From the IMG/VR virus record IMGVR_UViG_2563366982_000005: DNA of 25,963 nt, one strand, 5' to 3'. Of this stretch, positions 12,853-16,336 are shown one piece after another. The notes below the pieces were generated by a model, which ran no database searches, was not told the DNA's origin, and saw only the letters and a program-made list of their open reading frames with translations. The first letter of the stretch is position 1, and the number at the start of each line of letters is the position of its first letter. The translations under genes and the position numbers were made by a program. Source of the DNA: a virus. Taxonomy: Duplodnaviria > Heunggongvirae > Uroviricota > Caudoviricetes.

Positions 12853-12882
12853 TGAAGTGGTCAACAAAAACTGGCCACCGAG

Positions 12883-14030
<1,148 letters not shown>

Positions 14031-14254
14031 TATGGCACCTGTGTTGTTCTGAGGTGAGCATATCACCTCTGTTCAGGTGGCCAAATTCAGTAAACCACTT
14101 CAGTCTCAGGCATGAACACCAAAAGGCAGATAGAGAAAAGCCCCAGTTAACATTACGCGTCCGGCAAGACGCTTAACATTAATCTGAGGCCATATCTATG
14201 CTCTACACACGTAGGTTAGCCTCTTACGTGCCGAAAGGCAAGGAGAAGCAGGCT

Positions 14255-14410
14255 ATGAAGCAGCAAAAGGCGATGCTAATCGCCCTGATCGTCATCTGTT
14301 TAACCGTCATTGTGACGGCACTGGTAACGAGGAAAGACCTCTGCGAGGTACGAATCCGAACCGGCCAGACGGAGGTCGCTGTCTTCACAGCTTACGAACC
14401 TGAGGAGTAA
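14255..14410 (+). CDS. hokD: Hok/Gef-family type I toxin (HokD/RelF-like)
   Basis: 51-aa frame MKQQKAMLIALIVICLTVIVTALVTRKDLCEVRIRTGQTEVAVFTAYEPEE with AAGGAG SD; matches HokD (RelF) as I recall it; single TM helix plus conserved Cys. Confidence 0.8.
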   Translation: MKQQKAMLIALIVICLTVIVTALVTRKDLCEVRIRTGQTEVAVFTAYEPEE

Positions 14411-14479
14411 GAGACCCGGCGGGGGAGTAATCTCCCGCCACCTCTGATGTGCCAGGCATCCTCAACGCACCCGCACTTA

Positions 14480-14500
14480 ACCCGCTTCGGCGGGTTTTTG
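14480..14500 (+). terminator. Intrinsic terminator downstream of hokD
   Basis: ACCCGC-TTCG-GCGGGTTTTT: GC stem, tetraloop, U-run. Confidence 0.6.
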
Positions 14501-14510
14501 CATTAGTCTG

Positions 14511-14545
14511 GTTGACAAAAATAGAAAAATGCGAAAATATGTGGT
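14511..14545 (+). promoter_or_regulatory. Candidate promoter for the two-gene cassette
   Basis: Perfect -35 TTGACA at 14511-14516 followed at ~17 bp by an A/T-rich -10-like region (AAATAT); about 30 bp upstream of cassette gene A; prediction by eye. Confidence 0.3.
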
Positions 14546-14575: not shown

Positions 14576-15226
14576 ATGAATGAAAATCAGTTAGCTCCTT
14601 GTTGGGAATTTCAACCTTATCTTGCTGAAAACTATGTTCGCCACTTGTTGGCGGAGATCGCTAACGTACTTGAGCAGCTGTACTATCATAAGCACGCATT
14701 AGACAGCAACTGGTCTGAAGGTGTAAGGGCTTATGATTGGGTCAGAAATCATCTTATTCAAAATGAAGATGCAATTCCTGGCCTTGAGATGATTTCCAAG
14801 GGGTTGGACTATGTAGTTGCTTTAAATAAAGTTCCGCTACAATTTACCAAAGATTGCATTAATAACCCCAAAAAGAAACATCGTCTGCGTCGAAATAAAG
14901 TAGAGTATGAGCAGCTCTCATTGTTTGGTGATGTTGAGGCTGAGCAAGATATTACATGGCGAGTCATAGCTGAGCCTTTTTTATCCGAAGAGGGCGATGG
15001 TGAATTAGAGTCCACACTGCCTCGTTGGGAGGTAGCTCTTGTTGGATTTAATACTTATGGTGCTCAGATTAGTATAGTTTCTCATCAATCTACAGCATCG
15101 ATGCCGCTTATGCCTCTTGATTATAACACACTCCCTGACGAAGCGGAGATTAATAAGGTGCCTCTTCGTCGGCGTACGAAGGATAAAGATTTGGATGTGA
15201 GCAGTGATGGAACATCAGGTGAATAA
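14576..15226 (+). CDS. Hypothetical protein (216 aa), first gene of accessory cassette; contains QLSLF motif
   Basis: Track ORF; no recognised domain; basic patch NPKKKHRLRRNK followed by EQLSLFGD (residues 113-117 match the beta-clamp binding pentapeptide consensus QL[SD]LF); 3' end overlaps gene B start. Confidence 0.55.
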   Translation: MNENQLAPCWEFQPYLAENYVRHLLAEIANVLEQLYYHKHALDSNWSEGVRAYDWVRNHLIQNEDAIPGLEMISKGLDYVVALNKVPLQFTKDCINNPKKKHRLRRNKVEYEQLSLFGDVEAEQDITWRVIAEPFLSEEGDGELESTLPRWEVALVGFNTYGAQISIVSHQSTASMPLMPLDYNTLPDEAEINKVPLRRRTKDKDLDVSSDGTSGE

Positions 15227-16310
15227 CTTCACTGAGTATCGGGGTGATAAGCTCAAACTAGCGAGAATGGCTGTTGGGCTTTCTTGTGAAGAGTTAGCCG
15301 AAAAAATTGGCAAGACAAAGCAATTCGTTAGCAAACTGGAGAAGGGGTGCAGGCCATCGGAGCAATGTCTTGAGTTAATATCTTCAGCGCTTATGATTAA
15401 GTCCAGTTTTCTTTTTACTGAACGAAAATACGCTCTGGAAAGTGATGTCTGCCATTTTCGGAGTAAGAAGTCCAGGACTCAAACGCTGACTAATAGTGTA
15501 TTGGCCAGGGCTGAGATTCTTAATATTATAATTTCTGCTGTTGAAGGTGAAATCGAATTTCCTGACGTTAACATACCGGAGCACCCAGGGGCTGAATTAC
15601 TTACTCCGAATGATATTGAGCGAGTGGCAGAAGATTGTCGCCGTGCCTGGAATTTAGGTCTTGGCCCTATATCATCAATGGTTAAATTGGCGGAGAGTTT
15701 AGGGGTAATCGTTGCGCATGTTACGGGAGTCGATGATCGTGTTGATGCTTTTACTGTTCACAATAACAGGCCTGTTATCATCAGGAACAATGTTAAAAAA
15801 AGCATATGTAGATTTCGCTCTGATTTAGGTCATGAATTAGGGCATTTAGTAATGCATGAGGGCATAACGACAGGTGATAAACTTACGGAATCACAAGCCG
15901 ATCACTTTTCGAGCGCCTTATTAGTTCCCAGGTTATCTTTCATTAAAGAATTTCCACGAATACGAGGTAAGCAATTCGACTGGAATGCTCTGGTTGAATT
16001 TAAACTTAGATGGAAAATCAGCCTTAAAATGTGTATTTATCGAGCCAGCGCATTAGGCTTATTGACCCAGGAACAGGCAAGAACTGGCTATATGCATCTT
16101 AATTCCAGAGGGTATACGAGAGTTGAACCTGGTGATGAACTTTTGCGCCCTGAAGAACCCGGCATGCTGGCCGAGGCGATTGAAATGCTGGATGATGCAA
16201 CCTGGCTAAGAATTCTTATGAAAACTGGCTTGAGCCAAGATTTAATTCGTGAGTTGTTCTCCATCAACAGACCTATTACAAATCCAAGAAATATTTTCCA
16301 GATTGTTTGA
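15207..16310 (+). CDS. XRE-family HTH fused to ImmA/IrrE-type (M78/COG2856) zinc metallopeptidase
   Basis: N-terminal HTH (LKLARMAVGLSCEELAEKIGKTKQFVSKLEKG); HEXXH motif (GHELGHLVMHEG) about 200 aa in; ATG 15207 (track ORF at GTG 15204) overlaps upstream gene end. Confidence 0.75.
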   Translation: MEHQVNNFTEYRGDKLKLARMAVGLSCEELAEKIGKTKQFVSKLEKGCRPSEQCLELISSALMIKSSFLFTERKYALESDVCHFRSKKSRTQTLTNSVLARAEILNIIISAVEGEIEFPDVNIPEHPGAELLTPNDIERVAEDCRRAWNLGLGPISSMVKLAESLGVIVAHVTGVDDRVDAFTVHNNRPVIIRNNVKKSICRFRSDLGHELGHLVMHEGITTGDKLTESQADHFSSALLVPRLSFIKEFPRIRGKQFDWNALVEFKLRWKISLKMCIYRASALGLLTQEQARTGYMHLNSRGYTRVEPGDELLRPEEPGMLAEAIEMLDDATWLRILMKTGLSQDLIRELFSINRPITNPRNIFQIV

Positions 16311-16314
16311 GTAT

Positions 16315-16336
16315 ACCCGCTTCGGCGGGTTTTTTG
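16315..16336 (+). terminator. Intrinsic terminator downstream of cassette (near-identical copy of the hokD terminator)
   Basis: ACCCGCTTCGGCGGGTTTTTTG; the 20-bp core ACCCGCTTCGGCGGGTTTTT is identical to 14480-14499. Confidence 0.6.

Follow-up and report, generated by a model that had tools for sequence, protein, structure and literature searches.

How a toxin carried by a prophage might act on its host is the question raised by two overlapping genes, here called gene A and gene B, in the virus record IMGVR_UViG_2563366982_000005 of IMG/VR (Duplodnaviria; Heunggongvirae; Uroviricota; Caudoviricetes), a stretch of 25,963 nucleotides (nt) that is referred to below, at its full length, as the window. 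An initial annotation, made from the letters of the window, had noticed the pentapeptide QLSLF in the 216-amino-acid (aa) product of gene A, and had proposed that this protein may target the host replisome by docking onto the sliding clamp DnaN (the β clamp). In this paper, we have examined to which system the two genes belong, how far the peptide is conserved, where it lies in the predicted fold and how it compares with peptides in other toxins of the same kind. The reading that we favour, to which we assign a probability of about 0.65, is that the pair is a RosmerTA toxin-antitoxin module carried as prophage cargo, and that the QLSLF-bearing linker of its toxin, RmrT, would plug the hydrophobic cleft of DnaN, so that host and phage replication would stall in a form of abortive infection. 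The features of the two genes that bear on this reading are as follows.

14576..15226, plus strand: gene A (rmrT), the RosmerTA toxin gene, 216 aa (PADLOC RmrT model PDLC03929; phrog_5786)
14864..14899, plus strand: basic patch N97-K108 of gene A, NPKKKHRLRRNK, which precedes QLSLF
14912..14926, plus strand: QLSLF, Q113-F117 of gene A, a perfect β-clamp-binding consensus pentapeptide
14927..14950, plus strand: acidic linker G118-D125 (GDVEAEQD), prone to indels, that leads from the motif to the strand 127-135, gap-rich in the alignment and a loop in the predicted model
15207..16310, plus strand: gene B (rmrA), the antitoxin gene (RefSeq start ATG at 15207; first in-frame start GTG at 15204)
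15243..15392, plus strand: XRE-type helix-turn-helix (HTH) of RmrA, about residues 14-63 (Pfam HTH_3, expectation value E = 5e-7)
15732..16049, plus strand: Peptidase_M78 (ImmA/IrrE) domain of RmrA (Pfam PF06114, E = 6e-11)
15831-15845, plus strand: zinc motif HELGH, RmrA residues 210-214, within the Peptidase_M78 domain

Gene A matches the PADLOC model PDLC03929 over residues 7-209 (E = 4.6e-25), which is the sole RmrT model of that collection that it matches, and also phrog_5786, a family of function unknown (E = 8e-85). Searches of gene A against Pfam and NCBIfam returned no match, and its RefSeq counterpart in E. coli 042 (WP_001004956.1) is labelled 'hypothetical protein'. The toxin gene comes first and gene B follows on the same strand, its first 20-23 nt lying within gene A. 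Gene B matches the PADLOC RmrA model PDLC03943 (E = 6e-105) together with 13 more RmrA models, and it scores 155.9 bits (E = 1.5e-45) against the NCBIfam spr1629-family repressor/antitoxin model, under the model cut-off of 335; its counterpart in E. coli 042 is labelled 'helix-turn-helix domain-containing protein'. Its product is 29% identical (E = 2e-35) to the RmrA of the verified RosmerTA system of E. coli OLC-716. Because of these RmrT and RmrA matches, the HTH and M78 domains and the identity to the OLC-716 antitoxin, genes A and B are, judged by sequence, a RosmerTA toxin-antitoxin defence module. The gene order is kept in distant homologues as well: an HTH-M78 gene comes next after the toxin gene in four of the four whose contigs were examined, and several lie in defence or mobile contexts, with a SLATT and reverse transcriptase pair or a methyltransferase as neighbour or an integrase/AlpA island as location.

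Some variation in these surroundings may be noted. In one metagenomic relative (L002, 2910-4036) the antitoxin is split into an HTH open reading frame (ORF) of 152 aa and an M78 peptidase ORF of 223 aa. As for the members on defence islands (L003, 6028-7958; L024, 443-1341 and 3238-3624), one adjoins a pair of SLATT_5 and reverse transcriptase genes, and another adjoins a RES/Xre toxin-antitoxin pair together with a restriction endonuclease.

The peptide itself has to be seen against what is known of the clamp. Motifs that bind the β clamp fall into two classes, a pentapeptide of the form QL[SD]LF or QLxLF and a hexapeptide of the form QLxLx[LF], and canonical examples are found in Pol III alpha, Pol II, Pol IV, UmuC, Hda, MutS and MutL, where QLSLPL is the form of Hda and QMSLL that of MutS. 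The canonical motifs were reportedly described by Dalrymple in 2001 and Wijffels in 2004. In the product of gene A, QLSLF occupies residues 113-117 and follows the basic patch, just as the initial annotation had claimed, and the span that it noted, 14909-14929, corresponds to E112-G118. Residues 97-117 read NPKKKHRLRRNKVEYEQLSLF, and the motif-bearing peptide that we regard as a candidate clamp ligand is NKVEYEQLSLFGDVEAE. The P98-K-K of the basic patch is kept throughout the family, position 98 being P in 33 of 35 sequences. QL[SD]LF has a single occurrence in the window over all six reading frames, where amino acid composition leads one to expect 3.4e-4 occurrences per 216-aa protein and about 0.02 over all window ORFs of at least 100 aa. 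A lone match of this sort is nevertheless weak evidence, because readers can look for many motifs, and conservation among homologues was one of the checks that the initial annotation had called for.

Few features of the family are as well conserved as the motif. Nineteen close homologues, which come from Enterobacterales and Xenorhabdus and are 53-100% identical, all have Q113, L116, F117 and G118. An exhaustive profile-free search yielded 37 cluster representatives from Aeromonas, Vibrio, Photobacterium, Pseudomonas and metagenomes, all of them labelled 'hypothetical', and columns were ranked by information content in an alignment of 35 mostly non-redundant relatives (about 20-55% identity, 191 columns). 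Q113 ranks sixth of the 191 columns and is Q in 30 of the 35 relatives; E110 ranks 13th and L116 25th, with 28 L, 3 F and 2 I at the latter position. By a permissive clamp-motif pattern, a clamp-motif-like pentapeptide or hexapeptide stands at the motif column in 25 of the 35, whereas the rest of these proteins has 0.0011 matches per position. The variants fall into both recognised classes: pentapeptides (QLSLF, QMTLF, QISIF, QLTLF, QLPLF, QYELF and QYDLF), hexapeptides where position 5 is not F (QLSLPL, QLALLF, QLNLAF, QLEFAF, QFVLPL and QMSLEL) and, further, QLSLL and QMSLL, so that the exact forms of Hda and MutS are included. Because the motif is conserved down to about 20% identity, the QLSLF match is, on the evidence of this alignment, not a product of chance.

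Damaged alleles also occur in the family. Among P0011, P0013, P0014, P0016 and P0020 (alignment A1) there are toxin alleles frameshifted after about residue 160, and P0011 (163 aa, from E. coli) lacks residues 61-112 through an in-frame deletion whose end falls directly before QLSLF; these alleles look like inactivated toxins. The Joint Genome Institute record of a Pseudomonas member (P0091, in the cluster of P0031) bears the name 'alkylated DNA nucleotide flippase Atl1', an isolated label without other support.

The placement of the peptide in the fold was predicted with AlphaFold2 using the family alignment, which gave a model with a predicted local distance difference test score (pLDDT) of 80 and a predicted template modelling score (pTM) of 0.72. 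The first half of the model consists of a helix (18-36), a second helix (51-62), three strands (70-92) and two short helices (101-104 and 108-115), and the second half of a loop (116-126), three strands (127-171) and a disordered tail. QLSLF spans the end of helix 108-115 and the beginning of loop 116-126, and residues 111-120 have a mean pLDDT of 67, compared with 88 and 83 in the flanking blocks; directly after the motif the alignment is rich in indels. A peptide buried in a folded core would have spoken against a docking role, and the model does not show QLSLF as part of a confidently predicted core; as modelled, its position fits an exposed linker between two subdomains.

If the peptide matters to RosmerTA, it should be sought in other RmrT toxins. 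RosmerTA was named by Millman et al. (2022), who gave the toxin function as unknown and verified the system of E. coli OLC-716 for phage defence. The RmrT of OLC-716 belongs to PADLOC family PDLC03935, which differs from the PDLC03929 of gene A. Its family was assembled from eight plasmid homologues (24-39% identity), each followed by an XRE or ImmA/IrrE gene; the mid-protein consensus is QLDLF, with exact QLDLF in Sphingomonas, exact QLSLF in Methylocystis and the hexapeptide QLKLDL in OLC-716 itself. When the profiles of the two families are compared (hhalign probability 66%, E = 5.8e-5, 141 columns), the motifs and a conserved W that follows them are in register. The gene A family compared with the single OLC-716 RmrT sequence gave no significant match, the value of 5.8e-5 being reached by the profile-profile comparison only. 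The OLC-716 family is, on this alignment, probably a distant homologue of the gene A family. Since QLDLF and QLSLF stand in register, a clamp-type peptide is, at the level of sequence, common to at least two RmrT families that are themselves probably homologous, and plausibly also to a third, that of RipA, for which clamp binding has been found by experiment.

RipA and RipB (Spr1630 and Spr1629) of Streptococcus pneumoniae are a 'Rosmer' pair that kills through DnaN (Maziero et al., PLoS Genet, December 2025, PMC12795458). It was shown experimentally that RipA binds the hydrophobic pocket of DnaN, and seven substitutions suppressing RipA toxicity, at H183, L185, Y249, Y333 and L371, cluster in the hydrophobic protein-binding pocket of the clamp (PMC12795458). 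ClpX is needed to restrain RipA, so that RipB and ClpX both hold it in check, and ClpX is proposed by the authors to deliver RipA to RipB (PMC12795458). The word 'motif' is absent from that paper, and no motif of RipA is named there. We recovered the RipA sequence via its cloning primer; RipA matches a single PADLOC RmrT model, PDLC03931, and RipB matches the RmrA model PDLC03945, so that in both pairs the two halves match RmrT and RmrA, and in both the toxin comes first and is followed by an antitoxin with an XRE-type HTH and an ImmA-type zinc peptidase. In the RipA family Q141, E143, L144 and D147 are invariant, and the peptide takes the forms QMELV, QMELI, QLELI and QMELF. The model of RipA (pLDDT 66, pTM 0.73) places it where a low-confidence segment (residues 128-143, pLDDT below 50) ends, a segment that separates an alpha-alpha-beta3 half from a beta3 half, the same order of elements as in the gene A model. 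Both toxins thus have a conserved Q-[LM]-x-L-h peptide (h, hydrophobic) on what is predicted to be a flexible linker. The best local hhalign alignment of the two, which is not significant, pairs EQLSLFGDV with IQMELVSDE. They differ in that RipA belongs to PDLC03931 and gene A to PDLC03929, in that RipA is encoded on the chromosome of a Gram-positive host and tied to competence whereas gene A is borne by a prophage, and in that RipA has QMELV, with an additional N-terminal DLF, where gene A has the perfect consensus QLSLF.

A second short conserved peptide lies in the disordered C-terminal tail of gene A (about residues 185-200, 15129-15175). It reads LP-x-EAEI-x3-LRRR in the gene A family and [VI]-[DE]-[IL]-x-x-P-x-[VIL] in distant members, and in RipA the tail peptide (residues 228-235, L019) contains an invariant DFEIIPR. 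This peptide may serve for the docking of RmrA or ClpX, or as a clamp motif of the MutL-like QxxLxP type.

Another toxin of this kind is Vmi480 of Vibrio mimicus (198 aa), which is encoded first in its operon, is lethal in E. coli and is neutralised by Vmi470, a 362-aa HTH-zinc-peptidase protein (Luo et al. 2015, PMC4671572). The termini of Vmi480 as read from the cloning primers (MTKKPEFY... and ...QKKVSDE) match those of family member P0034 (199 aa; MTPKPEFY...QKEVDDDE), which itself matches PDLC03929 at E = 4e-35, and because of this agreement Vmi480 very probably belongs to the family of gene A, a judgement made on the termini. An exact search with the vmi480 primer found no match in viral or metagenome contigs. 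The likeness to genes A and B extends to the layout, in which a toxin of about 200 aa precedes an HTH-zinc-peptidase antitoxin of about 365 aa, but an identity of only about 25% to gene A is to be expected. In the presence of a prophage pair of E. coli E101, 33% and 42% identical to Vmi480 and Vmi470 respectively, clpP becomes essential (Rousset et al., bioRxiv 10.1101/2020.05.25.114553), which parallels the dependence on ClpX of the control of RipA.

A clamp-directed toxin is also known outside RosmerTA. SocB of Caulobacter crescentus occupies the hydrophobic cleft of DnaN and so blocks replication, and its control depends on ClpXP; according to the authors of the RipA study, SocB and RipA show no sequence or structural similarity (PMC12795458). 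SocA is a ClpXP adaptor, an architecture different from the HTH-peptidase antitoxin encoded by gene B, and the likeness of gene A to SocB is functional only; we claim no homology.

The proposal that gene A targets the host replisome is thus supported by the conservation of the motif and, by analogy, by RipA as a RosmerTA toxin that binds DnaN. From these comparisons we infer binding to DnaN, arrest of replication, an involvement of ClpXP and a defence phenotype of the present module. RmrA would keep RmrT silent, by analogy with the relatives probably together with ClpXP, until a phage cue lets the toxin accumulate or be released. The exposed linker in the middle of RmrT would then present QLSLF, which would insert into the hydrophobic cleft of DnaN and outcompete Pol III alpha, the clamp loader and the repair polymerases. 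Host replication would stall, and so would that of any phage reliant on the host replisome or clamp, with abortive infection as the result. Whereas clamp-binding housekeeping proteins use the clamp to work on DNA, the motif of gene A would jam it.

Several observations weigh against this proposal. About ten of the 35 relatives are degenerate at the motif column (HDSLLG, SLDFLS, QPQFPF), and in the model Q113-L114 form part of the last turn of a helix and are not fully disordered. Between the gene A family and RipA no homology is detectable, either from the single sequence or from profiles (hhalign probability 0.24), and the link between the two rests on a shared partner, the order of secondary-structure elements and a short motif. 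RipA also has a DLF-type peptide at its N-terminus (MLNQDLFD, L019 3874-3900; NPTDLFD and MEREIFT in relatives), and this peptide, not QMELV, could be its real clamp-binding site. Finally, since the unrelated RmrT of phage Kita depolarises membranes (Ernits et al. 2023), RmrT toxins are heterogeneous and not all of them are directed at the clamp.

As the main rival to this proposal, the linker motif could instead be a control element, a site where the RmrA peptidase, ClpXP or both recognise, cleave or mask a toxin whose target lies elsewhere. ImmA/IrrE-type peptidases do cleave their partners at exposed sites (Ernits et al. 2023; PMC12795458), RipA is restrained by both RipB and ClpX, with ClpX proposed to hand it to RipB (PMC12795458), the E101 pair related to Vmi480/Vmi470 makes clpP essential, and the flexible inter-subdomain linker of the model is where a protease would be expected to cut. 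What such a site would leave unexplained is that the variants track the two classes of clamp-binding motif, that Q is the best-conserved position of the peptide and that the suppressors of RipA lie in the peptide-binding pocket of DnaN, and we consider it rather unlikely as the whole account. The two roles are compatible, masking of a clamp-binding peptide being an obvious way to neutralise the toxin. That QLSLF arose by chance, or is of structural significance alone and has no part in any interaction, would agree with the expectation that such a five-residue pattern occurs about three times in an E. coli-sized proteome and with the modelling of part of it as helix, but the motif is kept among sequences that are about 20% identical and recurs at the same position in a second and probably a third RmrT family, which makes this very improbable. 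It is also conceivable, although quite unlikely in our view, that RmrT is an enzyme, e.g. a degenerate PD-(D/E)xK-type nuclease, whose catalysis causes the toxicity and for which the clamp is a landing pad at the fork or is not used at all. As a bolder extension of the clamp-plugging proposal, the folded domains of RmrT might carry an unseen activity that the clamp delivers to replication forks.

The surroundings of the module bear on its role as cargo. It is carried by a lambdoid prophage of E. coli, where it occupies the early-right (nin) region, with hok/gef on one side and the genes for DUF968, rusA and Q on the other; the prophage of E. coli 042 has the same arrangement. The elements that bracket and may drive it are the following.

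14479..14499, plus strand: left terminator hairpin, ACCCGCTTCGGCGGGTTTTT, which ends the hok/gef transcript (terminator scan)
14512..14540, plus strand: putative cassette promoter, with a perfect -35 box TTGACA (14512-14517), a 17-nt spacer and a weak -10 box AAATAT (14535-14540)
16315..16335, plus strand: right terminator hairpin, which ends the cassette and is the second copy of a 20-nt repeat (terminator scan)

Alignment of the two flanks of the cassette gives 20 identical bases, an exact direct repeat each copy of which forms a terminator hairpin. Because identical hairpins bracket it, the module looks like an inserted cargo cassette, which suggests that it was inserted at the hok terminator, or duplicated it, in the manner of a moron. 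The putative promoter was read by eye from the letters and falls under the threshold of the consensus scan. Of 5426 complete E. coli genomes, 237 contain gene A, in copies that are nearly all at least 99% identical, and a search for divergent DNA in E. coli genomes returned close copies of gene A only. A tblastn search of gene A against GenBank phages gave no match, and one against plasmids gave two near-identical E. coli copies only. Directly upstream of the cassette stands a Hok/Gef type I toxin ORF (14198-14410; Pfam HOK_GEF, E = 3e-23; hokD in E. coli 042), so that the nin region holds two neighbouring toxin systems, Hok/Gef and RosmerTA. The minus strand carries, about 100 bp upstream of hok, an IS3-family insertion sequence of about 1.25 kb (12854-14099), with orfA at 13728-14066 and orfB at 12883-13701, which stands in place of about 730 bp of small hypothetical genes in the otherwise collinear prophage of E. 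coli 042.

RosmerTA as a kind of system was already known, and a paper of 2025 had described a Rosmer toxin that targets the clamp; what is added here is a conserved, canonical clamp-binding peptide that unifies RmrT families. RosmerTA is widespread, its toxins are listed as of 'unknown function' and the family of gene A is labelled 'hypothetical protein' in the records examined, 237 complete E. coli genomes among them; Vmi480 is already in use as a counterselection marker without a known target. For these toxins the conserved consensus peptide points to a definite mechanism open to test by mutagenesis. A candidate site is thereby at hand for the binding of RipA to DnaN that was reported in December 2025. 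The peptide also extends the clamp mechanism to an E. coli system that is verified for phage defence, and adds a candidate natural high-affinity ligand to the leads for inhibition of DnaN. The phages predicted to be sensitive are those that use the host clamp. We propose tentatively, at somewhat less than even odds, that a clamp-binding peptide on the inter-subdomain linker is the shared ancestral warhead of RmrT families, at least of PDLC03929, PDLC03935 and PDLC03931, that RosmerTA would generally be a DnaN-targeting abortive infection system and that the antitoxin and ClpXP would mask or cut the linker. If this is true, the phage specificity of RosmerTA would follow from the dependence of each phage on the host clamp.
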